Origin: a candidate division WWE3 bacterium
Lineage (GTDB): Bacteria; Patescibacteriota; WWE3; UBA101185; UBA10185
DNA length: 64,000 nt
Reading direction: 5' to 3'
NCBI GenBank assembly: GCA_014729135.1
Contig: WJKK01000001.1
Coordinates: forward strand, 128,593 to 192,592
Shown here one piece after another: positions 1,667 through 61,693 of the stretch; the stretch's first letter is position 1; each line of letters starts with the position of its first letter. A program made the translations under genes and the position numbers. Under the pieces are notes generated by a model. The model was not told the origin of the DNA. It searched no databases and saw only the letters and a program-made list of their open reading frames with translations.

Positions 1667-3160
1667 ATGAAAGAAAAAAAAGACCGACAGGCTAACCACT
1701 CCAAAAACCACAGCACAAAAAAAACCTACATAACAACAGCAATACCCTACGTCAACGCAGCCCCTCACATAGGCTTTGCTCTAGAAATAATTCAAGCCGA
1801 CGTACTTAACCGCTACTACAAAAGCAAAGACCAAGACACTTACTTTGTAACCGGAACCGATGAAAACTCGCTAAAAAACGTCTTGAAAGCTGAAGAAGAA
1901 GGCATCTCCACAAAAGAACTTGTAAATAAATACTCTAAAAACTTCCTGGAGCTAAAGGAAATTCTTAACATTGACTATGACGATTTTATTAGAACCACAG
2001 AGCCCAGACACATCAAAAACGTTGAAAAGTTTTGGAAGGCCTGTGAAAAAGATATCTACAAAAAAAGCTACAAAGGCCTTTACTGCGTGGGTTGCGAGGA
2101 ATTTAAACTTGAAAAAGACCTGGAGGAAGGAAAGTGCCCGGAACATTTAAACAAGGCTTTGGAAGTGGTGGAAGAGGAAAACTACTTTTTTAAACTCTCT
2201 AAATATCAAAAGCAATTAAAAGAACTTATCGAAACAGAAACCCTTAAAATCGTACCTAAAGGAAGAAAAAACGATGTTTTGGGATTTATTGATCAAGGCT
2301 TAGAGGACTTCTCTATTTCGCGATCGGTGGAAAGAGCTAAAGGATGGGGAATTCCTGTTCCGGGAGACCCCTCTCAAATCATTTACGTGTGGTTTGATGC
2401 CCTGGTTAATTACATTAGCGCTTTGGGATATGCCGAGGAAAGCGCTTTGTATAAGGATTTCTGGGCAGATAGCGACAAGATTCTCCATTGTATAGGCAAA
2501 GGAATTACACGCTTTCATGCAATTTACTGGCCGGCTATGCTTTTATCCGCGGGAGTAAGGCTGCCGACGCATGAGCTGGTTCATGGCTACATTACGGCGG
2601 ATGGGCAAAAGATGAGCAAAAGTTTGGGGAATGTTGTGGAGCCTAAGGCTGTGGTGGAAAAGTATGGAACAGATGCAGTGAGATACTTTTTGTTAAAGGC
2701 AATTCCGCCTACTAAGGATGGTGACTTTAATAAGGGGTATTTTGAGGAGGTTTATAATGCGGATTTGGCTAATGGCCTTGGTAATGCGGTTGCGCGTGTG
2801 GCTAAGATGGCGGAGAATTCGGGTTTTGAGTTTGAGGTTGATACTAAGGGGTTTGAGAAGGTTTGGGAGGCAGATTGGACGCAGGATTTGCAAAGTCACA
2901 TGGAGTCTTTTCGGCTGGATTTAGCTATACAGGAGGTGTGGAAAATGCTTTCACAATTGGATAAACATATTAATGAACATGAGCCTTGGGCTGTTAAGGA
3001 TGAGGAAAAGTTGCGTGAAATTTTGGATTTTGAGGTAAATCTTATCAGAAGGGCGGCTGTAGTGCTAAAGCCTTTCATTCCTGATACTAGTAGGAAGATA
3101 CAAGCTCAATTCTTTAAAAAAGATATTAAGGCGCAAAAACCCCTCTTCCCACGCATTTAA
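1667..3160 (+). CDS. metG: methionyl-tRNA synthetase (short form)
   Basis: Class I HIGH-like motif ([11 protein letters not shown]), KMSKS motif ([10 protein letters not shown]), zinc knuckle CVGCEEF...CPEH and overall MetRS sequence pattern. 497 aa, without the C-terminal dimerisation domain. Confidence 0.9.
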
Positions 3161-3161: not shown

Positions 3162-3302
3162 AAGGATGATCCTTTGTAGAGACGGACCTTTCCCCTATAT
3201 AAGAGCGGAAACCTGTAAGAAGGTAAAGGATTATCCTTTAAAAAAGATCCAGAATAACTGGGGGTAAAGGAAAAAATACCCATTTGATGAAGGATTATCC
3301 TC
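3162..3302. promoter_or_regulatory. three copies of a 13-bp palindrome AAGGATNATCCTT at 64-bp phasing, upstream of smpB
   Basis: aaggatgatcctt (3162-3174), aaggattatcctt (3226-3238) and aaggattatcctc (3290-3302). Centre-to-centre spacing is 64 and 64 bp. The sites lie in the metG-smpB intergenic region. Confidence 0.4.
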
Positions 3303-3333
3303 TAAGTTAAATACTTAATGTTAAAATGGGCAC

Positions 3334-3801
3334 ATGCTGCTAGCAAAGAACAGAAAAGCGCTTTATAACCATGAAATAATTGAAAAGTACCTCGCTGGAG
3401 TGGTCCTAAAAGGGTATGAAGTAAAGGCAATTCGCGAAGGAAAAATAAGTTTTGAAGGATCCTATATAAAAGTGCAAAATGGAGAGGCTTTTGCCATAAA
3501 TATCCATATTGGAAAATACTCCAAACAATCGCAAGAACTGTCGCAGAGGCAGGAAAAACATCCTTTAAAACTACTCCTCAACCAACGAGAAATTGAAGAA
3601 ATCGCGCGGGAAACGCATCAAAAAGGGAAAACAGCAGTACCTATAGCTTTCGTTTTACGTAATAATATGATAAAATTGGAGTTAGCTGTAGTGAAGGGAA
3701 GAAAAGAGTATGAGAAGAAACAGCTTGCTAAGAAACGCCAAGTAGAAAAGGATCTGCAAAGGCAAAGAAAGAATTTAAAATTCGGGGATGACCGGATTTG
3801 A
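3334..3801 (+). CDS. smpB: SsrA-binding protein SmpB
   Basis: 155 aa. The SmpB pattern (GVVLKGYEVKAIREGKISFEGSYIKVQNGEAF...PLKLLLNQREIEEI...KGKTAVPIAFVL...KLELAVVKGRKEYEKK) is present and the gene lies immediately upstream of tmRNA, which is the classic arrangement. Confidence 0.85.
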   Translation: MLLAKNRKALYNHEIIEKYLAGVVLKGYEVKAIREGKISFEGSYIKVQNGEAFAINIHIGKYSKQSQELSQRQEKHPLKLLLNQREIEEIARETHQKGKTAVPIAFVLRNNMIKLELAVVKGRKEYEKKQLAKKRQVEKDLQRQRKNLKFGDDRI

Positions 3802-4175
3802 TTGATTGCACTTTTAAAATATGGGCGCAAGCCAAGCTGCTGATGCTTGTTAAACACAGCAAAAAACACTTGCCGATACAATGGTAAGAGAGCCTGCACT
3901 AGCGGGCGCAATGGCCTAAAATTAGTTTAATTACTATTTAGGTCAGGTTCCTAAAAGCCTATCCGGGGGGTTTTAGAGAATCTTATAAAACCGGAGTGAG
4001 GGGTTTGGAGCCGGTAATTCCAAAATCCAAGGGCTAAAAAACCCAAACACTTTACCTAGGGAGGACCTAGAAAGCGCGTTAAAGGCTTTCCCTTCTGAAA
4101 ATAACTTTAACTAAGCTTGTAGATACTCATATTTGGTCTTTCAAGACGGGGGTTCGATTCCCCCCATCTCCACCA
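3784..4175 (+). ncRNA. ssrA: tmRNA (ssrA), one-piece
   Basis: 5' end GGGGAUGACCGGAUUUGA resembles the tmRNA 5' tRNA-like domain. The 3' end is GGGGGUUCGAUUCCCCC-CAUCUCC-ACCA: T-arm plus acceptor strand plus ACCA. The acceptor stem pairs GGGGAUG with CAUCUCC, including a G3-U70 alanine identity pair. Length is about 392 nt. The candidate tag ORF ends at UAA 3917-3919 (...ALAGAMA*), but the tag frame is uncertain. Confidence 0.75.
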
Positions 4176-4334: not shown

Positions 4335-4937
4335 ATGTATCTAAACAAACTGGCAGAAACCATCCTTAAATACAACCACCCAAAGAAAATAAGCAAGGTA
4401 AACTTCGCCAAAACCATATACCTAGTTCATAAATACCTCTGTCAAAATAAAAAATCCAAAAACACAGCAATAAAGTACATTAGAATGCCTCTGGGGCCGG
4501 TTCCAAAGGGATTCATGGATCTACACAACCACAATAAAAACATCAAAGTTTCCATAAGAAACACAGAAAACGATCTGTTGTATAACACGGAGAATTACTC
4601 TATTGAAAACAGGGAAATAGAACATTTCGCTAAAGATACGGAACTGGAAATAAAAAAACTCGCAAAAGCGCTGCAAAGATTCCCAACTAGCAAATTAGTA
4701 GATTACACGCATAAAGAACCTTCCTGGAAAAAAAGAAAAAACGGGGAAGAATATTTTATACAAAAAGAGGACCTGAAAAGAAAACTCCCTAACGTACGGG
4801 GAAGAAAAAGACAAAAAACAAAAGAAAATTCAAGAATACAAGCTCAACTTTTAGAGGGACTACTAGAAGACATTGTCACAGAGAGTACAAAGCTGGAATA
4901 TCCAGATTTAAACCAAGATGGAAAAAAGTCTCAGTAA
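4335..4937 (+). CDS. Panacea-domain (SocA/DUF4065-like) putative antitoxin
   Basis: The N-terminal region (KVNFAKTIYLVHKYLCQ...AIKYIRMPLGPVPKGF) resembles the Panacea/DUF4065 domain. It overlaps and precedes a Fic/Doc gene, an arrangement like SocAB. Confidence 0.45.
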   Translation: MYLNKLAETILKYNHPKKISKVNFAKTIYLVHKYLCQNKKSKNTAIKYIRMPLGPVPKGFMDLHNHNKNIKVSIRNTENDLLYNTENYSIENREIEHFAKDTELEIKKLAKALQRFPTSKLVDYTHKEPSWKKRKNGEEYFIQKEDLKRKLPNVRGRKRQKTKENSRIQAQLLEGLLEDIVTESTKLEYPDLNQDGKKSQ

Positions 4938-5622
4938 GAATGATGTAACAAGAAACCTGTGGAATTCCTATAAGAAGAGCGAGGAATATGCGAAAGGAAT
5001 GCATAAAGCAATTCCGGAAAATCACCCCTTAATACAAGAGCGGGAGAAAGAGGGCTTACAACATATCTACTCCCAGGTTAAAAACAAGACCGCCCAAGGA
5101 GAGCTTGCGTTTAAAAAGCTCAAAAAACGAACAGTAGGTAGTTGGGTTAATGAGTGGAAAAAAATGCATTCCACACTTTTTGGAACAGTGCTTAAAGAGC
5201 ATGGGCATTTAAGAAAGAACGATGTCAGGTTTGGAGGTATTGACAGTGTAGAAAAACACAAAATACCCACCTATAAAGAGGTACCTCGAGAGATAAACAA
5301 GCTAGCCTACAAAATACCCCAATTTATGCAAGAAACAAAGGAACAAAGTGAAATCTGCAAAATTCTAGCAAAAATACACTATCAATTTATTCGAATACAC
5401 CCTTTTTACGACGGAAACGGAAGAATAGCACGCGTCTTAACGGATCAAATTTCAGTGGCATATGGATTGCCCCCAGCCATAGCGGGATATCCCCGGCATG
5501 ATAAAAAAAGAAGAGAAGCCTATCACAAAGCAATCGATTCCTGCGCAGAGGATTCAACGTGCGAAAGTCTGGCCCTCTGGATTGAGGGTTATATAAGCAA
5601 ACAGAAAGAACAACTTGCTTAA
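4918..5622 (+). CDS. Fic/Doc family protein (putative AMPylating toxin)
   Basis: Canonical Fic motif HPFYDGNGRIAR (HxFx[D/E]GNGRxxR). Confidence 0.8.
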   Translation: MEKSLSKNDVTRNLWNSYKKSEEYAKGMHKAIPENHPLIQEREKEGLQHIYSQVKNKTAQGELAFKKLKKRTVGSWVNEWKKMHSTLFGTVLKEHGHLRKNDVRFGGIDSVEKHKIPTYKEVPREINKLAYKIPQFMQETKEQSEICKILAKIHYQFIRIHPFYDGNGRIARVLTDQISVAYGLPPAIAGYPRHDKKRREAYHKAIDSCAEDSTCESLALWIEGYISKQKEQLA

Positions 5623-5743
5623 AATTTCTGTAGCTTTATGGAAATCTTTATAAAACTGCAAATCCTTTTATTTTTTAGTGCTGTTGTTATCTTTTTTGGA
5701 ATTGGCTACATGATGGAAATCTAACCGTTCAAGACCTTACTTC

Positions 5744-5772
5744 TTGACACAAGGTTACACAATGTGTAATAT
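5744..5772 (+). promoter_or_regulatory. sigma70-like promoter with overlapping palindromic operator for the vapBC-like operon
   Basis: TTGACA (5744-5749), a 17-nt spacer, then TAATAT (5767-5772) with an upstream TGTG. The palindrome TTACACAATGTGTAA (5755-5769) overlaps the -10 element. The start codon is at 5782. Confidence 0.45.
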
Positions 5773-5781
5773 GTAATCATT

Positions 5782-6027
5782 ATGAACAGAGTACAAGTAT
5801 TACTAAAACCTGAAACCATAACTAAAGTAAAAAAAGCCGCCAAAAAGAACAAAACCTCTGCCTCCGGCTTTATTAGAGAGGTGGTAGAGAAGGAGCTGGA
5901 AAAGGAAAAATCTAAAAAGGACCCCATAAAAATCCTATTAAATGCAGCTAAAAACGCGTCCAAAGGAGGTCCCAGAGACCTCAGCACCAATGATGACTAT
6001 CTTTATGGCAAGGACAGCGTACTATGA
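5782..6027 (+). CDS. ribbon-helix-helix antitoxin (VapB/CopG-like)
   Basis: 81 aa with an RHH-like segment (SASGFIREVVEKELEK). It overlaps the downstream PIN gene by 4 nt (ATGA). Confidence 0.5.
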   Translation: MNRVQVLLKPETITKVKKAAKKNKTSASGFIREVVEKELEKEKSKKDPIKILLNAAKNASKGGPRDLSTNDDYLYGKDSVL

Positions 6028-6428
6028 GAATTCTAATAGATGCTGATACCTATATAGCCCTCTACAACAAAGACGACGCCCTACACAACAAAGCAAATAA
6101 AATCCTAAATTCTCTCAAAAACAAAGATGTAGAAACCTTTACTACTTATGATGTTGTGGATGAAGTGGCGACTAAATTGTCTTATTTCTTAAAAAAATCG
6201 GATTCTCTGAGGTTTTTAAAGCAGTTAATGGAGTCCGAAACAGAAATAATCTATCCCACCGAAAACAGCCTCCTTGAAACAATAGAAAAAGTGAAATCAA
6301 TAAGGTCTAAAAGAGTTTCTTTCACGGATTGCGCAAATATGATTGCTTACAAGCATTACGACATAGATGCGATTTTTTCTTTTGACAAGATTTACGAGAA
6401 GCAAGGGATAAAAACGTTGAAACCATGA
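6024..6428 (+). CDS. vapC: PIN-domain toxin (VapC-like)
   Basis: 134 aa with N-terminal ILIDADTYIAL (acidic D residues) and C-terminal FTDCANMIAYKHYDIDAIFSFDK, the typical PIN signature. Confidence 0.75.
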   Translation: MRILIDADTYIALYNKDDALHNKANKILNSLKNKDVETFTTYDVVDEVATKLSYFLKKSDSLRFLKQLMESETEIIYPTENSLLETIEKVKSIRSKRVSFTDCANMIAYKHYDIDAIFSFDKIYEKQGIKTLKP

Positions 6429-16533: not shown

Positions 16534-17420
16534 AAATTTTCCAAATCCTCCATTAAACTTTTTACCAAATTGGGAATATTTTCCAATTCCTCGTGTGTAT
16601 AGACATATCCTAAAGCATTTAAACAGGAGAACACAACTCCCGGGTCGGAATAAATTTCCTCCGCATACGTACAAGCAACTAAACTATGAACTAAAACGTT
16701 TCCGGAAGTTTCCCCTACCTGAGACTTATCACATCCCATAGGACATCCAACACAGGAGGGATTATCCGCCGGAGAAATTTTAAGCTTTTGGGCTTCATTA
16801 AAGAGCTTAAGATACAATTTCCCGTAACGGGAAATGCCTTCAATATCAAAAGAAGAGTCGGCGTTTATTAGCAACCCTCCTAAGTTACGCTTTGCAAATA
16901 AAAAGGAGAGCAAATGATCTTTGGTATGAAAATAATCATCTAAAAGTAAGTGCTCCTTAAAACTTAACAAAGAGCTTCTTCCCGGAAGAGACTTTCCTGA
17001 AAACTCCTCAAAAGAGTCATAAAAGTTAACAGCACCTGAAGTTATTTCTGTAAAAACAGGAGTCTTAGACTTCCCCAAAATAACAACAGCATCCAAACCA
17101 ATAAAGCGAAGACGTGAAGACAAACTGCCTCCTAAATAAAGTTCCGTAAGACCTTTCCTGCCGGGATTAATTATAGAATTGGACTCTGTAGCAAGATCTA
17201 AATTGGATCCCGTTAAAACACAAGTCTTAGAAACATACGGAAAAAGGCCGTTTAAAGGACCAATAGAAAAAATCAAAGGATCCTCATCGGCATGCATTTG
17301 CAAAAGCTTTAATCCCAAAGCCAATCCACCCAGATAAGCGTGCAAATCGGGATACGTCTTAACGTTAAAGGTCTTATCGGAAAGATTGATATAAAGAACT
17401 TTTCTATTCGAGAAGTTCAT
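16530..17420 (-). CDS. miniaturised aldehyde:ferredoxin oxidoreductase (AOR)-family protein (AOR N-domain plus Fe-S loop only)
   Basis: 296 aa. The N-terminus matches the AOR_N domain: KVLYINLSDKTFNVKTYPDLHAYLGGLALGLKLL, GSLSSRLRFIGLDAVVILGKSKTPVF. The motif NPSCVGCPMGCDKSQVGETSG matches the AOR [4Fe-4S]-binding loop (C.xCP.GCgR...vGETeG). The roughly 300-aa pterin-binding domains of full-length AOR (about 600 aa) are absent. Confidence 0.5.
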   Translation of the reverse strand: MNFSNRKVLYINLSDKTFNVKTYPDLHAYLGGLALGLKLLQMHADEDPLIFSIGPLNGLFPYVSKTCVLTGSNLDLATESNSIINPGRKGLTELYLGGSLSSRLRFIGLDAVVILGKSKTPVFTEITSGAVNFYDSFEEFSGKSLPGRSSLLSFKEHLLLDDYFHTKDHLLSFLFAKRNLGGLLINADSSFDIEGISRYGKLYLKLFNEAQKLKISPADNPSCVGCPMGCDKSQVGETSGNVLVHSLVACTYAEEIYSDPGVVFSCLNALGYVYTHEELENIPNLVKSLMEDLENL

Positions 17421-24339: not shown

Positions 24340-24744
24340 TCACTCGGAAGGGGTATTGCCTGTCCACTCTACAAGCTCCGAAATCCCCTGGCGTAAGCTG
24401 CCAAAGACACCTCCTGCATCCCCCGCATTAGTACCCAAAATACCATTCACAATAACATTAATCACAAAGACACCTATAACTATTAAAAGACCAATTACCG
24501 AAAAGGTTAAAGATTGCTTAGCTCCAGCGGTTCCTTTGGGATCCCCCTGAGCTGTTGCAAATTTGTAGGCTGAAAAGATCACCATTACTATGAAAACAGC
24601 TCCGGCAGAAAAAACCAAAACATTAAAAGCGCGTGCCAATACATCCACTATTTCCACAACAGTACCGACACTGTTTAAATCTGCCGGATTTTGGGCGTAC
24701 ACAACTGAAGCAGGTAAAAGTTTTAAAAGTGACAAATAAAGCAT
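24340..24744 (-). CDS. small two-TM protein, paralog 1 of 4 (VirB2/TrbC-pilin-like topology)
   Basis: 134 aa. Signal-like N-terminus ending VYA-QNP. Two hydrophobic helices separated by the loop ATAQGDPKGTAGAKQSL. Paralogous to the three upstream genes. Confidence 0.5.
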   Translation of the reverse strand: MLYLSLLKLLPASVVYAQNPADLNSVGTVVEIVDVLARAFNVLVFSAGAVFIVMVIFSAYKFATAQGDPKGTAGAKQSLTFSVIGLLIVIGVFVINVIVNGILGTNAGDAGGVFGSLRQGISELVEWTGNTPSE

Positions 24745-24747
24745 GAT

Positions 24748-25065
24748 TTAAAAAGTGGGCACCGCTCCCTCCAAGTCTCCCCCGGAAACACCTAAAATAC
24801 TATTTACAATTATATATTTTAAAGCAATAGCTCCAACGGAAAGAACTAAAGCAACTATAGCATATGTAAGTGAATGCCTAGCACGCTCCATGTTGTCGGG
24901 ATTACCTCCGGCAGTTACAAAGCGAATGCCTGCTAAGCCAATGAAAATAATAGATAAAGATATACCCACACCCATGAAAAGATTAATGGCAACTCCAAAG
25001 AATTCGCCAACTGAATTGTATCCGGGATCGGGAATCCCGTTCCCGCTTACTACATACTCAAACAT
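24748..25065 (-). CDS. small two-TM protein, paralog 2 of 4
   Basis: 105 aa. Shared NSVGE motif, TM1, loop TAGGNPDNMERARHSL, TM2. Confidence 0.5.
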   Translation of the reverse strand: MFEYVVSGNGIPDPGYNSVGEFFGVAINLFMGVGISLSIIFIGLAGIRFVTAGGNPDNMERARHSLTYAIVALVLSVGAIALKYIIVNSILGVSGGDLEGAVPTF

Positions 25066-25187
25066 TTGTTTTTCTTAAATCTAAAAACTTAATTCAAAAA
25101 ATTGGAAGACCAAGACCTCCAACTTAAAGTAGAACAGAACACGCAAACGAACCGGGAGAATTAAATCTCCCGGAACGTTACTTGAAT

Positions 25188-25544
25188 TTACTCGGTACTA
25201 CCCGCACCTGCACCATCGATCACAAGGTTGGCATCCACACTGGAAATATCAGCATCCAAAATAGAATCTAATACTATTGTCTTAACAGCCAAGGCTCCCA
25301 ATGTAATGATTAAACCAATAACTGCATTTGTTAACCAAGTTCTAGCCTCCTCTGCTGCTTTAGCATCACCTTTTGCAGTGATGTATTTAATACCTCCCAA
25401 TCCTAAAAAGATAACCGAAAGGGATACAGCCACACCCATGATCACGTTCATAGCGACTCCAAAAACAGCAGCCAAACTATCAAAACGCTCCAAAGGATTA
25501 CTTACATTAGTACCTACACCCTGAGCATATACTCTTGTTAGCAT
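25188..25544 (-). CDS. small two-TM protein, paralog 3 of 4
   Basis: 118 aa. N-terminus MLTRVYAQG matches the signal-peptidase region of paralog 1. Loop TAKGDAKAAEEARTWL. Confidence 0.5.
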   Translation of the reverse strand: MLTRVYAQGVGTNVSNPLERFDSLAAVFGVAMNVIMGVAVSLSVIFLGLGGIKYITAKGDAKAAEEARTWLTNAVIGLIITLGALAVKTIVLDSILDADISSVDANLVIDGAGAGSTE

Positions 25545-25594
25545 TCAAATACACCTCCTTTAAAAAACTGATAAACGCTAAAGCCAGCTTAAAG

Positions 25595-25972
25595 CTAAAA
25601 CGAAGTATCAAATAAACCTGTTACTACTACTCTATAAATTGCAACTGCAGAAAGCACAAAAGCTAAGCCAATTATAGCAGACGTAAGATTTTCCCGAGCA
25701 GACTGCACTTTTCGGGGGTCACCCTCACTTGTCAACATTCCATAACCGTTCACTACTATCAAAACGAGCCCTATAATTATTGCTCCCGGCAAAAGTATTC
25801 TGTAAATGGCTGCAAATAAATTCTCTATAAGGTCGGTATCCCACCACTCGTCATCGGCTAACACAACTCCTCCGGTGAAAAAAGCAACGTATAAAAAAAC
25901 AAAGGCCTTCTTAAACAGAGTCACACCGCGAGTCAAACTGGGTAAAAATTTCCTTTGATATAATTTAAACAT
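25595..25972 (-). CDS. small two-TM protein, paralog 4 of 4
   Basis: 125 aa. Loop TSEGDPRKVQSARENL. Its start codon overlaps head-to-head with the start of the divergent gene at 25971. Confidence 0.45.
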   Translation of the reverse strand: MFKLYQRKFLPSLTRGVTLFKKAFVFLYVAFFTGGVVLADDEWWDTDLIENLFAAIYRILLPGAIIIGLVLIVVNGYGMLTSEGDPRKVQSARENLTSAIIGLAFVLSAVAIYRVVVTGLFDTSF

Positions 25973-35241: not shown

Positions 35242-36246
35242 TTAATCCGTTATAGAAAGGGAAGGGTTGGGAGAAATTCGCTTAAAATCCTCCAAAGAAA
35301 GGGGAGTGAAATTGTAGAAAGCAGCAGAAGCAACTGTAGAAGCATTATCACCACATAAACGAAGCTCCGGCAAAAACAGAGGAATCTCCAATTCCTTAGC
35401 ACGAAGCTGCAAACGAGAGCGCAGCTGTGTGTTAGCGGAAACGCCTCCCCCTAACAGAATGCTTTGGACTGAAAAATCAGAAGCTGCTTTAATAGTCTTT
35501 TCCACCAAAACATCAACAACTGCCGTCTCAAATTCACAAGCCACTTCTTCAACCGGAAAATCATTTTGCGCCCACAAGCGCTTAACCGCAGTTTTTAAAC
35601 CTGAAAAAGAAAAATCGTAATTGTCCTTGTTAAGCAGAGGGCGCGGGAGACTTCCTGCAACAGAGTTTTGCTTACAGGTAGCCGCTAACTTAGAGAGCTG
35701 AGGGCCTCCCAAGTAACTTGCAATATCTAAAATTCTAGCTGTTTTATCAAAGGCTTCGCCGGCGGCGTCATCTAAAGTACCTCCTAAATATTGCAAATCG
35801 CCATGATCGTGCATTAAAACCAGATCTGTGTGACCTCCACTAACTACTAAAACCAAAGCCGGAAATTTGATGTCAGCAGGATTGTGGCTTATGAAGTTGG
35901 CGTAAAAGTGGGCAATAAGATGGTTGATAGGTACAAGCGGTTTATCTAGAGCAAGAGCTAAAGCTTTGGCAGCTTCGATACCAACAATGAGAGAACCTAT
36001 TAAACCGGGGCCTTGAGTTACGGCGATTGCATCAATTTCTTCTTTTGGAACTTCTTTGAAAACTTGATCTAAAACGGGAATCATGAAGTCGACTTGCTTT
36101 CTGGCTGCTATTTCGGGAACAACTCCTCCTGTTTTTTCATGGAAGTCTTTAGAGGAAGCTACAACAAAGGCTAGTTCAGTGGTTCCGTTTTCTACAACGG
36201 AAGCAGCCGTTTCATCACAAGATGTTTCGATACCTAAGATTTTCAT
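35242..36246 (-). CDS. tsaD: tRNA N6-adenosine threonylcarbamoyltransferase
   Basis: MKILGIETSCDETAASVV N-terminus and Kae1/TsaD family pattern throughout. Confidence 0.9.
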   Translation of the reverse strand: MKILGIETSCDETAASVVENGTTELAFVVASSKDFHEKTGGVVPEIAARKQVDFMIPVLDQVFKEVPKEEIDAIAVTQGPGLIGSLIVGIEAAKALALALDKPLVPINHLIAHFYANFISHNPADIKFPALVLVVSGGHTDLVLMHDHGDLQYLGGTLDDAAGEAFDKTARILDIASYLGGPQLSKLAATCKQNSVAGSLPRPLLNKDNYDFSFSGLKTAVKRLWAQNDFPVEEVACEFETAVVDVLVEKTIKAASDFSVQSILLGGGVSANTQLRSRLQLRAKELEIPLFLPELRLCGDNASTVASAAFYNFTPLSLEDFKRISPNPSLSITD

Positions 36247-36292
36247 GGAGGTATTATACTGGATGACAACTAACGAAAAAGAAAGAAAATAT

Positions 36293-36432
36293 GAGGATGA
36301 TCCTCGGTGAGAGGGGTGATGGTACCTATCCCAAAAGCGGAAAGCTCTTTTCGGAGAAGGATCATCCTTACAGAAATCTTAAAAAAGATTGAGTTGGGAG
36401 GGACTTTGAGAGTTTGCAGAAGGATTATCCTT
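36293..36432. promoter_or_regulatory. second triplet of the 13-bp palindrome AAGGATNATCCTT at 63-64 bp phasing, upstream of tsaD
   Basis: gaggatgatcctc (36293-36305), aaggatcatcctt (36357-36369) and aaggattatcctt (36420-36432). The third copy lies in the 3' end of the exonuclease ORF. Confidence 0.4.
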
Positions 36433-37389
36433 GGAAGCATCGCTAATATAACCATTACTTGCCAAGCGTTTAACCAAAGAATAAAACGAAAAGTGCTCCA
36501 AAACCCCTCTAACCGAACCCTTATCTAAGCCCGAAAAAGCACAATCCTCCAAAGCCACCTCCAGATCCAGATCTGTAACAATTGTAGCCAAATCATAACT
36601 TAAAAAAGCCTCCTCCCGCTGCTGTGAAAGCTTCTTACCAACACTCCCCGAAATTTCATCCAAATTTGCATAAATCTCCTCCAAATGGCCATACGCCTTA
36701 ATCAACTTAGTAGCCGTAACTTTTCCAATGCCCTTAACCCCCGGAATGTTATCGCTGGAATCGCCGGTTAGAGCCTTGTAATCAACAACATACTCAGGAC
36801 CAAAGCCAAAATGAGCCTTAACCGCACGCGTATCAATCCAATCGGCATCCCTCCCACCCTTCTTGGGAGACATGACCAAAATACCATCATCCACCAGCTG
36901 CCATAAATCGCGATCATTAGAGCAAATCACCAACTGACCAATCTCTCCAAACTGAGCAGTTAGCGTTCCAATAACGTCGTCAGCCTCATATCCCGAAGCC
37001 ATCACTTGCTTTATTCCAAAGCCCTCCAAAAGCTCAAACAACAAAGGAATTTGCGCCTTTAACTCCTCATCCATGGGCTTGCGATGCGCTTTATAATCTT
37101 CAAATTGCTTTTTGCGCTCCACTTTTTCTTTGCTTTCCAGGGCAGCTACCGCATAATCCGGCGAAATCAAATCAAAGATGCTTAATAACATGGAGGCTGT
37201 ACCGTAAATGGCGTTAACCTGGCGATCCTTGGAGTCGGTTAAGGTGGGGGGTAAGGCGTAGTAGGCTCTATGGAAGAAGTTGAATGTGTCTATGATGAGA
37301 AATTTTTTCATGATTTTTTGTGGAGTTAGTATAGCAGGAGGAATTTTTAAAAAAGACACTACCACAGCTCCCTTTAGATACAGCAACAT
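36379..37389 (-). CDS. 5'-3' exonuclease (flap endonuclease, Pol I N-terminal-domain-like)
   Basis: FLIIDTFNFFHRAYYALPP (5'-3' exo N-domain), an acidic metal-binding cluster, and a C-terminal H3TH-like region. Confidence 0.85.
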   Translation of the reverse strand: MLLYLKGAVVVSFLKIPPAILTPQKIMKKFLIIDTFNFFHRAYYALPPTLTDSKDRQVNAIYGTASMLLSIFDLISPDYAVAALESKEKVERKKQFEDYKAHRKPMDEELKAQIPLLFELLEGFGIKQVMASGYEADDVIGTLTAQFGEIGQLVICSNDRDLWQLVDDGILVMSPKKGGRDADWIDTRAVKAHFGFGPEYVVDYKALTGDSSDNIPGVKGIGKVTATKLIKAYGHLEEIYANLDEISGSVGKKLSQQREEAFLSYDLATIVTDLDLEVALEDCAFSGLDKGSVRGVLEHFSFYSLVKRLASNGYISDASKDNPSANSQSPSQLNLF

Positions 37390-42788: not shown

Positions 42789-44378
42789 CTACATAGTAAA
42801 AATCAAATTTCGAATATTCTCCACATCCTGACGCGTACGCGGCTCCTTCTGAATCATCCCCGCAATCTTATCCGTACCATGCATAACCGTAGTATGATCC
42901 CGCCCCCCAAGAAGTTCTCCAATAACCTCCAAAGGACTCTCCGTCATATTCCTAAGCAAATACATCGCAATTTGACGCGGAACCACGATCTGCTTAGTTC
43001 GTCGCCTCCCCTTAATATCAGATTTATTCACCTGAAAATACTTACAAACTGCATTCATAATCGTATTTGGATTAGCTGTAGTCCTCCTGGAAGGTACCAC
43101 CTGCCCCAACTCCTCCGCCGCCATCTCTATTGTTGCCGGAACCTTCTGCACCTTCACTTTAGCTACAATTTGAATGTAGGCCCCTTTAAGCTCGCGAATG
43201 TTTGTGTCCACTTTTTCGGCAATAAAGTCGATAACGTCGTTACCTAAGGGATCCTTTCGCTGATCCCGCAAAGTTCGCAAAATGGCCATTCGCAACTCTA
43301 CATCTGCATGGGCAATGTCCGCCGTAATTCCACTTCCAAACCGTGACGTCAGCCTTTCCTCTAAACTTACAAAATCCTTAGGAGGTCGATCCGAAGTTAA
43401 CACAATCTGTTTTTTCTTGTCATAAAGCGTGTTAAACGTATGGAAAAATTCCCTCTGAGTTGCATCCTTGCCAATAATAAACTGAATGTCGTCAATTATT
43501 AGAAGGTCGGTTTTTCGGTACTTTTTTCTAAAAGCTTCTGTTCTGGCTCTCTTGCTAGCTTTTCCTTTTTGAATGACTTCTATTAATTCGTTCCCAAATT
43601 CTTCGCCGGTGGTGTAAATAACTTCCATGTCGGGTTTGGTTCTTAAGATGTAGTTGCCAATTGCTTGTACCAAGTGGGTTTTGCCTAATCCTACTCCGGA
43701 GTATAAAAATAAAGGGTTGTAATCTTTTCCGGGTTCTTTGGCTACGGTTAAGGCAATTGAGTAGGCTAAGTCGTTGCTGTCGCCTCTTATGTAGTTTTCA
43801 AATGTGTATTCCGGCACAAGCCCTGCCTTTCTTTGTGCGCTTTCTATTTTTTCTGCTACTTCAAATAGAGGGGCTTCTGAAGGTTTGTTTTTTGCACCTG
43901 CTTTTTTAGCGTTTGTAGCTTTTTTACCGGAGGCTGTTTCTGTGCTTGTTCCGGCAGGTACAACGTCCTGAATCTTTTTTTGCTCCAGTTTTGGATCTAT
44001 TATGAAGCTTAGTTTGGATTTTTTTTCGGTAATTTCTTCCAGGCTTTCTTTTATTAGGGTTTCAAATTTTTTTAAAGTTGCTTGTGCGGCTGCATTGGGA
44101 GTTGCTATGGTTATGGTGTCTTTTTTAATTTCGGCAATTTCGCATTTTACAAACCACATTTTGTAGGTGTATTCGGAGAGGTTTAATTGAAGTTTTCCCA
44201 GGACTCCTCTCCAAATGGAGTCTTTGTCGGTTTTTGCGTATGTTTTTTTGTCTTTTTCGGGGTTTTTGGAGGCGCTTTTTTCACTTTTTGGAGTTGTTGA
44301 GTTAGCCTTTTGCACCACTTCCTTTGGAGTAGTTTTTGCGGCTTTTTTTGTTACTGTTATTTCCTGTTGTACGGGCAT
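42789..44378 (-). CDS. dnaA: chromosomal replication initiator protein DnaA
   Basis: AAA+ motifs LFLYSGVGLGKTHLVQAIGN, LLIIDDIQFI, and a C-terminal DnaA box-binding domain. Confidence 0.9.
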   Translation of the reverse strand: MPVQQEITVTKKAAKTTPKEVVQKANSTTPKSEKSASKNPEKDKKTYAKTDKDSIWRGVLGKLQLNLSEYTYKMWFVKCEIAEIKKDTITIATPNAAAQATLKKFETLIKESLEEITEKKSKLSFIIDPKLEQKKIQDVVPAGTSTETASGKKATNAKKAGAKNKPSEAPLFEVAEKIESAQRKAGLVPEYTFENYIRGDSNDLAYSIALTVAKEPGKDYNPLFLYSGVGLGKTHLVQAIGNYILRTKPDMEVIYTTGEEFGNELIEVIQKGKASKRARTEAFRKKYRKTDLLIIDDIQFIIGKDATQREFFHTFNTLYDKKKQIVLTSDRPPKDFVSLEERLTSRFGSGITADIAHADVELRMAILRTLRDQRKDPLGNDVIDFIAEKVDTNIRELKGAYIQIVAKVKVQKVPATIEMAAEELGQVVPSRRTTANPNTIMNAVCKYFQVNKSDIKGRRRTKQIVVPRQIAMYLLRNMTESPLEVIGELLGGRDHTTVMHGTDKIAGMIQKEPRTRQDVENIRNLIFTM

Positions 44379-44660
44379 TTTATGTGTTTTTAGTTGGAGG
44401 GGCAGTGTAAAACTTGGCTTGTTGTGTGTATAACTTTAGAGAACTTATCCACATTTATAAAGCAATTCTAATTGATTCTTCTCTTGAAGGTGTGATGAGG
44501 TTCTTTAGAAGATGTGAATTTGAGTTAATTTAGTGATGTGCCTTAATGTCTTTGAAACGAAGTCCTCCTGAATTCAAATCTGTCATCCTGATGAAAATCA
44601 GGATCCTGTTGGTATGATCAGTTCCTTTGTTGACTTACTAACTCACATCCGTTATCATTT
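44379..44660. promoter_or_regulatory. dnaA/rpmH divergent intergenic region with DnaA box and ATCCTGA-family hairpin
   Basis: TTATCCACA at 44445-44453. Hairpin ATCCTGA-TGAAAA-TCAGGAT at 44584-44603. Confidence 0.4.
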
Positions 44661-44667
44661 CAACGCT

Positions 44668-44841
44668 ATGCCAAAGAGAACATATCAACCAAAAAAGAAA
44701 AAAGGACTTCGCAAATCCGGGTGGAGAAAGCTTATGCTAACAAAAAACGGAAGAAAGCGAATTGCCCGTCGTCGCAGGAAAGGTCGTAAAAGACTGGCAG
44801 GTAGGCTGTACAAAGGAAAGCAGAAGCGCAACATCAAATAA
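44668..44841 (+). CDS. rpmH: 50S ribosomal protein L34
   Basis: [43 protein letters not shown]. The start is at an internal Met of track ORF 44614..44841. Confidence 0.8.
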
Positions 44842-44896
44842 CACCTCCGCAGAGATTGCGTTGTTTTTATAAAGAAGCTTCAAAATAAAGCACCAA

Positions 44897-45265
44897 ATGC
44901 TAAAAAAACAAAACAGACTTCTGACCAACTTCGAATTTCGCATCACCCACCGTTATGGCAAGAAAACCTCCGGGAAATACTTCTACCTTTACTACTTAGA
45001 CCGCTCCAAACGCAACCTTTCCGAAGCAAAAAAACCAACAAGAATTGGCTTTCTAACCTCCAAAAAACTGGCAAAAAACGCCGTTACCAGAAACCGCATA
45101 AAAAGAGTCTTTAGAGAAGTGGTTCGCTTAAATCTTGATAAAATTAAACCCGGATTTTGGATAGCCCTGCACCCTAAAAAACAAAGTTTAACCGCCTCCT
45201 ATGAAGAAATTAACACTGACTTTATTAAAACTCTACAGAAAGTTTCTTTCGCCAAAGAACTTTAA
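44897..45265 (+). CDS. rnpA: ribonuclease P protein component
   Basis: 122 aa, basic. RnpA pattern ([11 protein letters not shown]...[20 protein letters not shown]) and the conserved position after rpmH. Confidence 0.8.
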
Positions 45266-45416
45266 CCTTTCTACCTGCAGATTTACGCCCAGTTGCTCCA
45301 AATATACAAGGCAAGCAGTGCAAAAGTACGGTGTTGTTAAAGGTTTAGCTTTAGGTTTGTGGAGGGTTTTGCGATGTAATCCCCTTTCAAAAGGGGGGTA
45401 TGATCCTGTAGAATAG
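45201..45416 (+). CDS. yidD: membrane protein insertion efficiency factor YidD
   Basis: [14 protein letters not shown]...[14 protein letters not shown] signature. Overlaps the rnpA 3' end in another frame. Confidence 0.75.
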
Positions 45417-45493
45417 TCAAGCAAATAAAAGCCGAAACTTTTTAGGCTTCCGTGAAGTAAACCTGAAGATAATCGGTTTAATAAAGTAAAAAT

Positions 45494-46306
45494 ATGTTAG
45501 GAACAATTTGGAACACAATTTTAGTAACGCCTCTTTTAAACTTGTTAGTGTCGTTGTATCAGGCAGTTGGAAATTTAGGTATTGCCATAATTTTAATGAC
45601 GCTTTTAATTAGAGCTGCTCTTCTTCCTGTAATGCTGCCTTCCTTAAAAAGCATGAAAAAACAGCGTGCTTTAAAACCCGAACTTGATAAAATTCGCGAA
45701 AAATTCAAATACGATAAGCAAAAGCAAGCCGAAAAACAAATGGAACTTTTTAAGCAACATGGTATAAATCCTGCTTCAGGGTGCTTAACTCAAATCGTAA
45801 CCATCTTAATTTTGTTTTCCCTTTATGGCGTTATTCGCAAATTCACAACCGCTGAAGATATTGCCAATATCAACAGCCTTTTGTACTTTCCCTTCTTAAA
45901 GCTTCAGGAAGGTGCCGGAATTAACACTTCCTTTTTATATTTGGATCTTGCTAAACCGGATCCTTACTTTATTTTTGCGGTACTTTCAGGAGGATTGCAG
46001 TTCCTCTCAACCCGCATGACCATGGGCTTTACTCAAATGGGAGAGAAAGCTGCAAAAGAGACTCCTGAGAAAACTGATGACATGGCTTACAACATGCAAA
46101 AACAAATGCTCTACACAATGCCCATAATGAATGTTATAGTAGGAGTCACTCTGCCCTCCGGAATCGTTTTGTACATGATAACGGCTGCGGTCTTTTCTAT
46201 GTTGCAAAATATAATTCTAAATGGTCCGGAAAGTATGGGTCTTTCATTTGATAAGATGAAGGCAACAGTTAATAAGTTAACGGATAAGTTGAGAAAACAA
46301 TCCTAG
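45494..46306 (+). CDS. yidC: membrane protein insertase YidC (short Gram-positive type)
   Basis: 270 aa, 5 TM helices, YidC/Oxa1 conserved region and conserved position. Confidence 0.85.
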   Translation: MLGTIWNTILVTPLLNLLVSLYQAVGNLGIAIILMTLLIRAALLPVMLPSLKSMKKQRALKPELDKIREKFKYDKQKQAEKQMELFKQHGINPASGCLTQIVTILILFSLYGVIRKFTTAEDIANINSLLYFPFLKLQEGAGINTSFLYLDLAKPDPYFIFAVLSGGLQFLSTRMTMGFTQMGEKAAKETPEKTDDMAYNMQKQMLYTMPIMNVIVGVTLPSGIVLYMITAAVFSMLQNIILNGPESMGLSFDKMKATVNKLTDKLRKQS

Positions 46307-46321
46307 AAAGCAGTTTGAACT

Positions 46322-46810
46322 ATGACTACAGAAAAAAAGATTGAAAGTTTGAAAGAAATTTTAGAGGAGATTTTTGGTTATTTGGGAATTGATCCTAAGT
46401 TTACAATTGATGATGTTGAAGAGGATCATCTTTTTGTGAAGATTTGGGACGGTGATTTAAGCTTTTTAATTGGTTATCGCGGGAATTGTTTGAAGGCTTT
46501 GAAGTATTTTTTGGGGCTGGCTTTAAATCGAGGGATTGATGAGGAAGAGTGGACACGCGTTAGTGTTGATATTGAAGGTTATTTGGAGCGTCGTAAGGAG
46601 AAGATTGAGGAGATTGCTCGTAATCATATTGATAGGGTTAGGTTTTTTGGTCATGAGGTTTCTTTGCCGAACATGGATGCTTCGGAGCGTTTCATTGTGC
46701 ATGAGTATGTTGGGGAATATGCTGATATTGAGTCGGAGAGCGAAGGCTCCGGTTATAGTCGCCATGTTGTGCTGAAGCCTGTGGGAGATTCTGAGTCAAG
46801 CTCAGAATGA
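46322..46810 (+). CDS. jag: Jag/KhpB-like RNA-binding protein (KH plus R3H)
   Basis: DHLFVKIWDGDLSFLIGYRGNCLKALKYFL (KH-like) and R3H-like C-terminus. Conserved position after yidC. Confidence 0.7.
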   Translation: MTTEKKIESLKEILEEIFGYLGIDPKFTIDDVEEDHLFVKIWDGDLSFLIGYRGNCLKALKYFLGLALNRGIDEEEWTRVSVDIEGYLERRKEKIEEIARNHIDRVRFFGHEVSLPNMDASERFIVHEYVGEYADIESESEGSGYSRHVVLKPVGDSESSSE

Positions 46811-46828
46811 CGCAAGTCATCCTTGCTT

Positions 46829-46856
46829 ATGTCATCCCGGACTTGATCCGGGATCC
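46829..46856 (+). terminator. ATCCYGR-family hairpin 3' of jag
   Basis: GTC-ATCCCGG-ACTTGAT-CCGGGAT-CC. Same architecture as 57605-57630 with compensatory stem changes. Confidence 0.4.
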
Positions 46857-46905
46857 AAAGGCTAAAAACGCTTTTGAAAAGGTCTAGCAAATACAAACAA
46901 AAACA

Positions 46906-48018
46906 ATGAAATTTACCTGCCGCCAAGAAAACTTAGAAACAGGACTATCCCAGGTATATAAGGCTGTCCCTAACAAAGCCAACCTACCCATTCTTTCAAA
47001 TGTCCACCTTTTAGCAAAGGACGGCCGCTTAAGACTTTCAGCAACCAATTTGGACACCTCCATTACAACTTATGTTGGCGTTGACATAGCAAAAGAGGGC
47101 GCCATTACAGTTCCTGCTAAAATCTTTCGGGATTTAGTTTCCAACTTACCCGAAGGCGTTATAACAGTTACTTTAGACGATCACTTGCTTCATGTTGAAG
47201 TGGAAAAAAACACCGCCAAGCTTAACACTGTAGCTGCAGAGGAATATCCTGAAATTCCCGTTATGGGAGATGATGTAGAAGTGCTTGAAATGGACACGGA
47301 AGTTTTTGCCGATGCCGTTAAGACCGTTGTTTTTGCAGCAGCTAGCGATGAAACTCGGCCTATCTTTTCCGGAGTTTACATTTCCTTTATTGACGGAGTT
47401 TTAAACGTGGTTGCCTCGGATGGTTTTAGACTTTCCGAAAAAACCTTAACCTTGGATACTCCTTTTACAAAAACTTTCTCCGTTGTTATTCCGGCCAAAA
47501 CCTTAATGGAAGTTTCCCGCTTAATTGACACCGATGCTCCCACAAAAATTGCCTTAGATGACCGTGCTAACTTAGTTTTATTTGCAAACAAAGATACTGT
47601 TGTAGCCACAAGAATCTTAGACGGCAACTTTCCCGATTACAAACGCATAATTCCCACAGAGCACACCCTAGAAGCAGAAGTAGCTTATGAAGATTTGTTG
47701 GAAGCTGTAAGATTAGCCGACGTTTTTGCACAGCAAGTAGACAGCTCTATTAAAGTAAAATTTGACTCTGAGGAAGGCTTAATTTCCGTTTCCTCTTCCT
47801 CTCCCGAATCCGGTGAGCAAACCTCCTCCTTTCAAGCAGCCGTTGACGGCGACCCTCTAGAAATAGTCTTAAACTCCAAATATATTCTTGATTTCTTAAG
47901 TAACGCCGGCACTGATAAAATTCGCTTTCGTACCCAAACAGATCTTTCACCTTGTGTGTTCAATCCTTTAGGTAAGGAGGGTTTTCTGCACATAATCATG
48001 CCTCGTCAAAAGGATTAA
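46906..48018 (+). CDS. dnaN: DNA polymerase III beta subunit (sliding clamp)
   Basis: 370 aa. DnaN N-terminal pattern MKFTCRQENL...ILSNVHLLAKDGRLRLSATNLDTSI and three-domain length. Confidence 0.9.
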   Translation: MKFTCRQENLETGLSQVYKAVPNKANLPILSNVHLLAKDGRLRLSATNLDTSITTYVGVDIAKEGAITVPAKIFRDLVSNLPEGVITVTLDDHLLHVEVEKNTAKLNTVAAEEYPEIPVMGDDVEVLEMDTEVFADAVKTVVFAAASDETRPIFSGVYISFIDGVLNVVASDGFRLSEKTLTLDTPFTKTFSVVIPAKTLMEVSRLIDTDAPTKIALDDRANLVLFANKDTVVATRILDGNFPDYKRIIPTEHTLEAEVAYEDLLEAVRLADVFAQQVDSSIKVKFDSEEGLISVSSSSPESGEQTSSFQAAVDGDPLEIVLNSKYILDFLSNAGTDKIRFRTQTDLSPCVFNPLGKEGFLHIIMPRQKD

Positions 48019-48057
48019 GTAATCGAATAAATCGGTTACAATTAAGCCAATTAACCT

Positions 48058-49833: not shown

Positions 49834-49891
49834 AATTAAGGCGCTATTTGCTGTTCTTTGAGAGAGGAAAGAGGCAGCTTTTTAAAAACAC

Positions 49892-51004
49892 ATGGCAAAA
49901 AAGAAAGAACCCAAAAACAAAAAAGAAAATATAGTAGATCCCAAGGAGCGCACAATTCAAAAGTTGGTGCTGCAAGGGAAAAAGCAAGGATATTTGACTG
50001 TTTCGGAAGTACTTTCTGTTTTTCCTGAAGCTGAAGAGAACATTGAGGAACTGGATAAGCTGTATCAAAAGCTTGGCGGTGAAGGTGTTAATGTTTTTGA
50101 TGTTCAGGCAGAGCGCGATGAGGAAGAATTGGATGCCTTTTCTGAAGGTATTTTAGAGAAGCTGCAAAAAGGAGGTTCTCGTTCGACGGATCCTGTTCGC
50201 ATGTATCTGCGTGAAATTGGAAAGGTTCCTTTGTTAAAGGCTGAAGAAGAAGTTCAGTTAGCCAAGCGAATTGAGGCTGATGATGAGGCTGCTTTTGAGC
50301 ATTTAACACGTGCAAATCTCCGCTTAGTTGTTTCCATAGCCAAAAAATATATGGGGCGAGGTTTAGCCTTTCTTGACTTGATTCAGGAAGGTAACACCGG
50401 TTTAATGCGTGCTGTTGAAAAATTTGATTGGCGTCGTGGATTTAAGTTTTCAACATATGCTACTTGGTGGATTCGTCAGGCCATTACACGCGCTTTAGCG
50501 GATCAGGCTAGGACTATTCGAATTCCTGTGCACATGGTGGAGACGATTAACAAGTATAAAAAGATTGAGCGTCAGCTGGAGCAGGAGAAGGAGCGTGCCA
50601 TTAAGCCTGCAGAAGTTGCAAAAGAGATGGACATTGATATTGAGAAGGCTCGCCACATTGTTAAGATTTCGCAAAAGACGGCCTCTATAGAGACCCCTGT
50701 GGGTAAGGAAGAGGACACTCGTTTGAAGGCTTTTATTGAGGATAAGAAGGCGTTGTCCCCTTTTGAGTCGGCTAGTCAGGAGCTTTTGAAGGGGCATATT
50801 ATGGATGTTTTGCACACGCTAAGTGATCGGGAGAAGCGTGTTTTGGAGTTGCGTTTTGGATTGTTGGATGGGCGGACGCGAACTTTGGAGGAGGTTGGCA
50901 AGGAGTTTGGAGTGACTCGTGAGCGTATTCGGCAGATTGAGGCTAAGGCTTTGCGAAAGTTGCGTCATCCTTCAAGAAGCCGTAAGCTACGGGATTATTT
51001 GTAG
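49892..51004 (+). CDS. rpoD: RNA polymerase primary sigma factor (sigma-70 family)
   Basis: Regions 1.2, 2 ([18 protein letters not shown]), 3 and 4 ([28 protein letters not shown]). Follows dnaG as in the MMS operon. Confidence 0.9.
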
Positions 51005-61209: not shown

Positions 61210-61527
61210 TTGTTGAACTTCTCAAAGGAGGTGTATAAAATGCCTTATTTTGATGGAACCGGTCCTTTAGGACAAGGCCCTTTAACCGGTAGAGGTATGG
61301 GTCCTTGCGGTGGTGGTTTTGGCTTCGGAAGAGGTCGAGGTTACGGCTATGGCAGAGGCTGCGGCCGAGGAAGAGGTTTAGGTCGTTTTTTCGGAAATGG
61401 CTTTGGTTTCTTTGGCAACGCCCGTCCCTTAACTCGCTCCGAGGAAAAAGAAGCCTTAGAGGACTACAAAAAAGATCTTCAAGATGAAATTTCCGCTGTA
61501 GAAGAGGAAATAAACAATCTTGAATAA
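61210..61527 (+). CDS. Gly/Arg-rich small protein, DUF5320-like
   Basis: MPYFDGTGPLGQGPLTGRGMGPCGGG... followed by a coiled C-terminus. Confidence 0.45.
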   Translation: MLNFSKEVYKMPYFDGTGPLGQGPLTGRGMGPCGGGFGFGRGRGYGYGRGCGRGRGLGRFFGNGFGFFGNARPLTRSEEKEALEDYKKDLQDEISAVEEEINNLE

Positions 61528-61693
61528 AACTACTTAAGGACAGTTTTTGCTTGTGTCTAGTTTTGCTCCCGGGTGCCTGTTGTTTGCTAAAAATTAGAGA
61601 GCTGTCCTTTTGGTAGTCGTGCTTACAGAGTGTTTTATTTAAAACTCCTCTTTAAGATTGCCGTAGAAATCAAAATAATTAAAGTGTTATCAT

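Follow-up and report, generated by a model that had tools for sequence, protein, structure and literature searches.

Phased triplets of a 13-bp palindrome belong to a dispersed intergenic repeat in a WWE3 bacterium and related genomes

Palindromes at three loci

The DNA analysed here, called the window below, is a stretch of 64,000 nucleotides from a candidate division WWE3 bacterium (assembly GCA_014729135.1, contig WJKK01000001.1, positions 128,593 to 192,592). It carries two arrays of three 13-bp palindromes, array A in front of smpB and array B in front of tsaD, and one more palindrome in front of ftsH, close to the window edge. The original prediction, a reading of the same DNA from its letters alone, had described three-site groups upstream of smpB and tsaD and interpreted them as operators of a regulon. 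The arrays and the genes beside them are listed here, with gene identities from NCBIfam.

1667-3160, plus strand: metG
3162-3302, no strand: array A as a whole
3162-3174, no strand: first palindrome of array A, AAGGATGATCCTT
3175-3225: first spacer of array A, 51 bp
3226-3238, no strand: second palindrome of array A, AAGGATTATCCTT
3239-3289: second spacer of array A, 51 bp
3290-3302, no strand: third palindrome of array A, AAGGATTATCCTC
3334-3801, plus strand: smpB
35242-36246, minus strand: tsaD
36293-36432, no strand: array B as a whole
36293-36305, no strand: first palindrome of array B, GAGGATGATCCTC
36306-36356: first spacer of array B
36357-36369, no strand: second palindrome of array B, AAGGATCATCCTT
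36370-36419: second spacer of array B
36420-36432, no strand: third palindrome of array B, AAGGATTATCCTT
36379-37389, minus strand: gene for a stand-alone 5'-3' exonuclease
62043-63947, minus strand: ftsH
63966-63978: edge palindrome, AAGGATTATCCTT, 18 nt upstream of the ftsH ATG (63947)

Exact copies of AAGGATNATCCTT are found at five positions in the window (3162, 3226, 36357, 36420 and 63966), and 100 dinucleotide-preserving shuffles gave no match (0 expected). The triplets are completed by two near-copies: AAGGATTATCCTC at 3290 has one mismatch, and GAGGATGATCCTC at 36293 has two mismatches and is yet a perfect palindrome of the 6-1-6 form. Other matches with one or two mismatches are dispersed over the window in a number close to chance. 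The three-site groups upstream of smpB and tsaD are thereby confirmed as five exact copies and two near-copies, and the genes named around them were assigned correctly.

The sites are spaced 64/64 bp in array A and 64/63 bp in array B, and the exact 64-bp phasing first described therefore holds for array A but not for array B. Similarly, the placing of both arrays in intergenic regions is right for array A, which begins 1 nt past the metG stop codon, but only in part for array B, which lies upstream of tsaD and shares the segment 36379-36432 with the 3' end of the exonuclease gene. The coding sequence of this gene takes in the third palindrome and most of the second spacer, and the array encodes the protein tail ...SKDNPSANSQSPSQLNLF*. 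The codons for QLNLF sit in the spacer; this C-terminal pentapeptide, which we take to resemble a beta-clamp-binding motif, aligns with the QLGLF that ends an orthologue. The copy before ftsH was described as single, but beyond it just 22 nt are left to the window end and it can for this reason not be called solitary. Both triplets, and probably the edge copy too, belong to a lineage-restricted modular intergenic repeat.

The repeat family in related genomes

A scan of a genome collection for two palindromes 61-67 bp apart gave a dense set of phased pairs and triplets on at least 10 contigs of CAZHSR01, a metagenome-assembled genome (MAG) from the candidate phyla radiation (CPR); the same scan also gave unrelated 22-bp tandem repeats in other phyla. 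CAZHSR01 is labelled Saccharibacteria and is locally syntenic with the window, with 51-73% protein identity. Its loci show repeated three-site AAGGAT(A/T)ATCCTT arrays spaced 65/65 or 63/63 bp, and about 20 three-palindrome arrays with a spacing of 63-65 bp lie in roughly 100 kb of this related genome. The original prediction had named the absence of phasing at other loci as grounds for its own refutation, and the phasing is present there. Elsewhere the family is rare. A metagenome scan added five matches, two of them related to the family; no copies of the phased palindromes were found in a scan of viral contigs, and no description of the motif or of CPR intergenic palindromes was found in the literature.

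Three sites are the usual number. In 168 kb of array-bearing loci there are 20 arrays with three sites, four with two and three with four, as well as seven single sites, and 40 of 51 neighbouring pairs of sites are 63-65 bp apart. The family consensus is three AAGGAY-N-RTCCTT palindromes with spacers of 51-52 bp, about 141-143 bp in total, and AAGGAYNRTCCTT is proposed as a search pattern for the palindromes. Half-sites occur as AAGGAY or AGGGAT, and hybrid sites such as AAGGACAATCCTT exist; such hybrid and variable half-sites fit the tolerance of a protein for its half-site better than base pairing. The family is lineage-restricted, dispersed, modular and intergenic, and its arrays are gained and lost between relatives.

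A variant palindrome, AAGGAC-N-GTCCTK, is found in L041 (4680-4835), L034 and L036, sometimes beside the AAGGAT type on one contig. The array in L041 has spacings of 42 and 59 bp, and its spacers look like shortened units.

Conserved palindromes and diverged spacers

The palindromes and the spacing of 63-65 bp persist in the family while the spacers diverge. Spacers compared in either orientation have a median pairwise identity of about 52% and a 95th percentile of 63%, with invariant 13-mers; the sole near-identical pair of units (88%) has unrelated flanks. Together with the conserved islands at smpB described below, these perfect 13-mers at a kept distance lend support to the proposal that the palindromes are sites for a dimer. 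The idea that the sites stand in helical register on the same face of the DNA is plausible for the same reason, that the spacing has outlasted the spacer sequence.

A consensus built from 24 units of exactly 65 bp reads AAGGATAATCCTT-G-nnn-AAA-n-T-n-G-n-ACTTT-TGACT-n-T-n-A-nn-AAAG-nnn-AAA-nn-CC-nnn-TTT-n-GCC. The spacer part is weak and two-fold symmetric: at register 0, 37% of positions are complementary about the unit centre (25% +/- 1.7% in shuffles), and the value declines in shifted registers. A column-preserving control, in which the left half of one unit was set against the right half of another, gave 41%. Since this exceeds the value within units, the symmetry comes from column composition and there is no covariation within units. 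Pairing between the two spacers of an array showed no covariation either (0.366 against 0.369 in the control), and single units folded no better than shuffles (mean z -0.35 and -0.68 on the two strands). With neither covariation nor an excess of folding, the symmetry belongs to a consensus of the DNA and not to a hairpin.

The spacers of the window were scored with half-unit matrices built from CAZHSR01 alone. The resemblance is weak but significant: five of eight half-spacers reach p<0.05, and the best score (p<1e-4) falls on the 26 nt before 3290 in array A. The first spacer of array B resembles the unit consensus (p=0.002 and 0.03), and the second, which is coding, gave no match to the unit matrices.

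Two further regularities concern the array as a whole. The A/T (W) content varies with a component near 10-10.4 bp, in register from one unit to the next, which none of 1000 register-scrambled controls reached. The centre base of the first palindrome is a purine and that of the last a pyrimidine in 15 arrays, with the reverse in one (p=5e-4); this polarity makes the outer sites mirror images about the array centre and the array a two-fold-symmetric object.

An RNA-level role was weighed against these data. The palindromes would then pair with each other in transcripts, forming 13-bp duplexes that close 51-nt loops; these would act as a switch, stabilise 3' ends or offer a site to RNase III. 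Minimum free energy folds do pair whole palindromes with each other (z -2.3 to -2.95), and the centre bases of the first and last palindromes are usually complementary (A..T or G..T). Such a structure would also work in either orientation, which is automatic since a palindrome reads the same on both strands. The covariation expected of pairing is absent within units and between the units of an array, however, hybrid half-sites would make C-A mismatches, and pairing does not predict the bias of 15 to 1 for A..T over T..A. Neither the spacing of 63-65 bp nor the symmetric spacer consensus is explained, and there are no Rfam matches: nothing was found at gathering thresholds, and permissive E-values gave matches at chance level (best E=0.88). 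Array A is not followed by a terminator-like U-tract, and the sole terminator-like match near array B is weak, its 5-pair stem being the palindrome at 36293 itself. The RNA-level role is thus quite improbable. Folding of units and arrays on both strands was also used to look for RNA or cruciform hairpins and gave only pairing of palindrome with palindrome; a hairpin of either kind is, without covariation, not supported.

Promoters and orthologous loci

Two promoter elements were read from the sequence near the arrays.

3319-3327, plus strand: extended -10 of the smpB promoter, TGTTAAAAT, 6 nt before the ATG at 3334
36253-36258, minus strand: probable -10 box of tsaD, TATAAT, 6 nt before the ATG at 36246

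The region upstream of smpB was compared in ten genomes (the window and loci L038 and L041-L048). Three of them have an array: the window, CAZLHD01 and Ga0366832, the orthologous arrays lying at loci L044 and L041. CAZWYL01 and PXDX01 count among the array-free relatives. The array of CAZLHD01 consists of AGGGATTATCCTT, AAGGATTATCCTT and AGGGATTATCCTT spaced 65/65 bp, and that of Ga0366832 is made up of the variant AAGGAC-N-GTCCTK with spacings of 42/59/42 bp. In an alignment of the three, the palindromes and the extended -10 stand out as conserved islands between diverged spacers. In all three species the palindrome nearest the promoter overlaps the smpB -35 region, and the ATG lies about 31-38 nt downstream of its centre; in the window, 16 nt separate the end of array A from the extended -10. 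The element TGnTAnAAT, followed by 6 nt and the ATG, is found upstream of smpB in all ten genomes, array or none, and its conserved placement suggests a leaderless-type transcript. As the -10 is kept in every array-free genome, smpB does not depend on the array.

The other two loci could each be compared with one relative. Locus L024 of CAZHSR01 is syntenic with 34-42 kb of the window, and there the gap between the exonuclease gene and tsaD is 20 bp and has no array; its arrays are instead found on the opposite side of the exonuclease gene and between the orthologues of murT and gatD. The one ftsH upstream region available from a relative has no palindrome. At the orthologous loci an array is present at smpB in three of ten genomes and absent at tsaD and ftsH in the one relative available for each.

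Where a -10 and a start codon are recognisable, the outer palindrome is 1 to 34 nt away from the nearest -10 box, the upper value being that between array B and the putative tsaD box. This leaves no fixed geometry between operator and promoter. Many arrays have no recognisable promoter at either side, and promoter and terminator scans around arrays A and B gave nothing beyond the shuffle expectation.

These results bear directly on the model of the original prediction, in which the palindromes are cooperative operators of one transcription factor that governs a stress or translation-quality regulon of smpB-ssrA, tsaD and ftsH. The overlap with the smpB -35 region in three species agrees with such a model, as do the 6-1-6 form, which suits a dimer, and the spacing of six helical turns, which puts all sites on one helix face. 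Against the model stand the unfixed -10 distance and the extended -10 of smpB, which is conserved regardless of the array. Seven of ten genomes also lack an array in front of smpB, and the relatives checked lack one at tsaD and ftsH. The neighbours of the arrays in the related genome are, moreover, functionally unrelated and some arrays lie between convergent genes, as described in the next section. The regulon is largely refuted and has only a slim chance of being right.

Gene context and gain or loss of arrays

In the related genome the arrays nearly always fill intergenic gaps, often starting 0-2 nt from a stop codon, and they are found between tandem, divergent and convergent gene pairs. 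Between convergent genes there is no promoter to control. The genes beside the arrays include those for Dus (dihydrouridine synthase), GH57, a lactate permease, AbiEii, a reverse transcriptase, YibE/F, a GT4 glycosyltransferase and an integrase as well as orphan open reading frames (ORFs), and no functional coherence is seen among them.

Two of these neighbourhoods have a composition of their own. In L029 (6276-7998) an AbiEii toxin gene lies 362 nt upstream of an array and a reverse-transcriptase gene starts 6 nt after it. In L001 (413-1928) a 1.36-kb segment is enclosed by two palindrome-spacer-palindrome modules that share 88% identity and stand in direct orientation; neither of the two ORFs of the segment has a match in Pfam or PHROG, and the segment could be a duplicated or inserted cassette.

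The variable placement of the arrays raises the question of mobility. The palindromes may be recognition and crossover sites of a recombinase or transposase, with the spacers as passengers, after the model of dRS3 and the neisserial intergenic mosaic element (NIME) or of a non-autonomous element resembling a REPIN or a MITE, a miniature transposable element with inverted repeats. Consistent with this, array positions differ between the window and CAZHSR01 within a syntenic region (exonuclease-tsaD and murT/gatD), and arrays at the smpB locus are present or absent among relatives. The 88%-identical units with unrelated flanks around 1.36 kb and two orphan ORFs hint at movement, several arrays abut or overlap stop codons or enter the 3' ends of genes, and one array has a tyrosine integrase gene at a distance of 157 bp. 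The NIMEs offer a precedent for which a recombinase has been proposed (PMC1797815).

Several observations speak against mobility as the explanation. No target-site duplications or shared flanks are visible, nearly all copies are old with saturated spacers, and no transposase was found beside the arrays in scans with Pfam, NCBIfam and PHROG. The viral contigs are without copies. A preference for exactly three sites at a fixed spacing of 63-65 bp is left unexplained, and in the array that three species inherited vertically, divergence has affected the spacers and spared the palindromes. Mobility is unlikely to be the explanation, though an appreciable minority chance remains with it. A MITE in the strict sense was considered and rejected: the outer palindromes could be terminal repeats, but the flanks have no target-site duplication and recent copies are few, as the identities given above indicate (one pair at 88% above a median of 52% and a 95th percentile of 63%).

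Comparison with known repeats and binding sites

The architecture is closest to that of the NIMEs of Neisseria, with clusters of repetitive extragenic palindromic (REP) sequences, the bacterial interspersed mosaic elements (BIMEs), as the other analogue. In NIMEs, 20-bp inverted repeats named dRS3 (ATTCCC-N8-GGGAAT) flank RS units of 19 to 214 bp from more than 100 families in variable intergenic arrays; the dRS3 repeats have been proposed as recombinase-binding sites, and their composition varies in a regular wave, which suggests a structural role (PMC1797815). NIMEs are defined by intergenic arrays in which a short inverted repeat takes turns with spacers of about 50-150 bp (PMC1797815), and the present arrays agree with this definition. 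The two have in common a conserved short element, diverse spacers and intergenic arrays that vary between relatives. They differ in the repeat itself, which here is a 13-bp 6-1-6 AAGGAY-N-RTCCTT palindrome and not dRS3, and in the host, a CPR bacterium of an unrelated lineage and not Neisseria. The spacer is fixed at 51-52 bp with one weak symmetric consensus, three sites are the strong mode whereas NIME arrays can be long, and a link to phage or recombinase is not shown here.

The arrays share with REP sequences and BIMEs that they are dispersed, multicopy extragenic palindromes in modular clusters with linkers, often right after stop codons. Among the host proteins bound by BIMEs are gyrase, IHF and Pol I. 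REP sequences, however, are imperfect palindromes of 20-40 nt with stable stem-loops, whereas the centre here is 1 nt, covariation is lacking and the folds of single units, given above, show no hairpin stability. Unlike in BIMEs, the spacing is fixed at six helical turns. No REP-associated tyrosine (RAYT, Y1) transposase was seen in general scans of 44 ORFs of the window and 19 of related loci.

Other known systems resemble the arrays in single respects. The OB sites of KorB and the matS sites of MatP have the 13-bp 6-1-6 form found here, and sopC of the F plasmid consists of regularly spaced units with one palindrome each, as the arrays do. Multi-site targets of the ParB, KorB and MatP type serve the organisation of a chromosome or plasmid and not the regulation of single genes. 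Their sequences are unrelated to the present one, matS and OB sites stand alone where the present ones form phased triplets, the twelve 43-bp units of sopC make up one locus, and no homologue of ParB, KorB or MatP is linked to the motif here. The res site of Tn3 and gamma-delta has three dimer-binding inverted repeats within about 120-140 bp that are wrapped in one synaptic complex, and the arrays likewise have three inverted-repeat dimer sites within a similar length. The subsites of res nevertheless differ in sequence and are unevenly spaced, res occurs once per transposon and not dozens of times per chromosome, and no serine recombinase was found nearby.

[quoted passage not shown] The repeat is only 13 bp long, there are usually two spacers and at most three, dozens of loci occur per genome, and the spacer consensus is common to loci and genomes. 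No cas genes were found among the annotated ORFs and no leader was seen. The arrays are a dispersed intergenic mosaic repeat in a lineage without an earlier description of such elements.

Probable binding by a dimeric protein

Taken together, the data favour the reading that the arrays are a dispersed intergenic repeat whose palindromes are selected binding sites of a dimeric DNA-binding protein, and we put its probability at roughly 0.55. Each palindrome would be bound by a dimer of one sequence-specific protein, as we infer from its form and conservation. The six-turn spacing and the symmetric A/T-rich positions of the spacers would set three dimers on one face of the helix, and the whole of about 143 bp may be bent or wrapped to form one nucleoprotein complex. 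This might act locally at gene boundaries in an architectural or insulating role, by occlusion of a -35 region (as at smpB), as a roadblock to read-through or in the organisation of domains; alternatively, it might be a scaffold for recombination. On this view the complex is not an operator serving a dedicated regulon.

Some of the results weigh against this reading. No convincing candidate for the binding protein was found with Pfam, NCBIfam and PHROG among the 44 and 19 ORFs. The one obvious uncharacterised DNA-binding candidate in the window is the DUF134 protein, which has no link to the palindromes. The arrays are dispensable, as shown by the seven genomes without one upstream of smpB, the array-rich CAZHSR01 among them, and the spacings of 42/59/42 bp and the GGAC variant in Ga0366832 mean that the 64-bp phasing is not universal. 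The A/T profile is of mixed periodicity, with a 7.2-bp component as strong as that of 10 bp. Perfect palindromes beside diverse spacers could also arise by ongoing site-specific recombination with no host function, and the sample of the source genome is 64 kb.

The DUF134 gene, which encodes a small predicted helix-turn-helix protein, follows a DUF5320 gene at 61210-61981.

A more far-reaching possibility is that CPR bacteria form a wrapped, two-fold-symmetric nucleoprotein particle and that the triplet of 141-143 bp positions it. About 14 helical turns would then be held by a lineage-specific protein as three dimers or a hexamer, selection would act on the bendability of the spacers and not on their sequence, and a chromatin-like unit would mark gene boundaries. 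We regard this as a long shot.

Origin region and other features of the window

The window also includes the chromosomal origin region, and the cumulative GC-skew minimum is at about 42-46 kb.

42789-51004: origin region, with dnaA, rpmH, rnpA, yidC, a jag/KhpB-like gene, dnaN, dnaG and rpoD
42789-44378, minus strand: dnaA
44445-44453: canonical DnaA box TTATCCACA, adjoining dnaA
about 44668-44841: rpmH

This region bears on whether the arrays are clusters of DnaA boxes that serve as DnaA reservoir or titration sites near the origin, given the TTATCC in the palindrome. The presence of the origin and the skew minimum in the window would agree with that, and TTATCCTT is found within the palindrome if the centre base is T. 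The original prediction called the resemblance to a DnaA box only partial, and rightly so, with TTATCC alone shared in that case: the palindrome matches six of nine positions and lacks the CACA part, and centre bases G, C and A destroy even this partial match. The DnaA reading is weak because the origin region of this genome carries the canonical TTATCCACA, and the arrays of the related MAG are spread over at least 10 contigs. We consider it scarcely credible.

A second exact palindrome, TTTCCCGTAACGGGAA, occurs three times (16818-16834, 59172-59188 and 62017-62033). Two of the copies fall within ORFs; the third, which has the DUF134 gene on one side and the ftsH stop codon on the other, could be a bidirectional terminator hairpin. 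The gene for transfer-messenger RNA (ssrA, 3784-4175) overlaps smpB at 3784-3801, its start lying 18 nt ahead of the stop codon of smpB (3801). Just downstream of ssrA, at 4335-6428, are a gene for a Panacea-domain (SocA-like) antitoxin and a Fic/DOC gene, and beyond them DUF6364 and PIN are matched weakly, below the Pfam threshold (E about 7-9e-4); the genes look like toxin-antitoxin modules. Four tandem small genes on the minus strand at 24340-25972 match the T4SS_pilin family.

Implications

Genomes of the CPR (Patescibacteria) are tiny, have few regulators and are thought to be poor in repetitive DNA. Phased palindromes beside a few housekeeping genes are easily misread as a regulon, and the present case calls for caution in this respect. 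The perfection of the palindromes and the six-turn spacing amid drift point to a sequence-specific DNA-binding protein with many chromosomal targets, and the motif is short and exact enough to be used directly in a search for the partner protein. Should the triplet prove to position a wrapped particle, a very small genome would possess a chromatin-like unit positioned by sequence, and the interest of the finding would rise. The family offers a testable handle on the organisation of the nucleoid, the boundaries of transcription units or recombination in organisms that are hard to culture.

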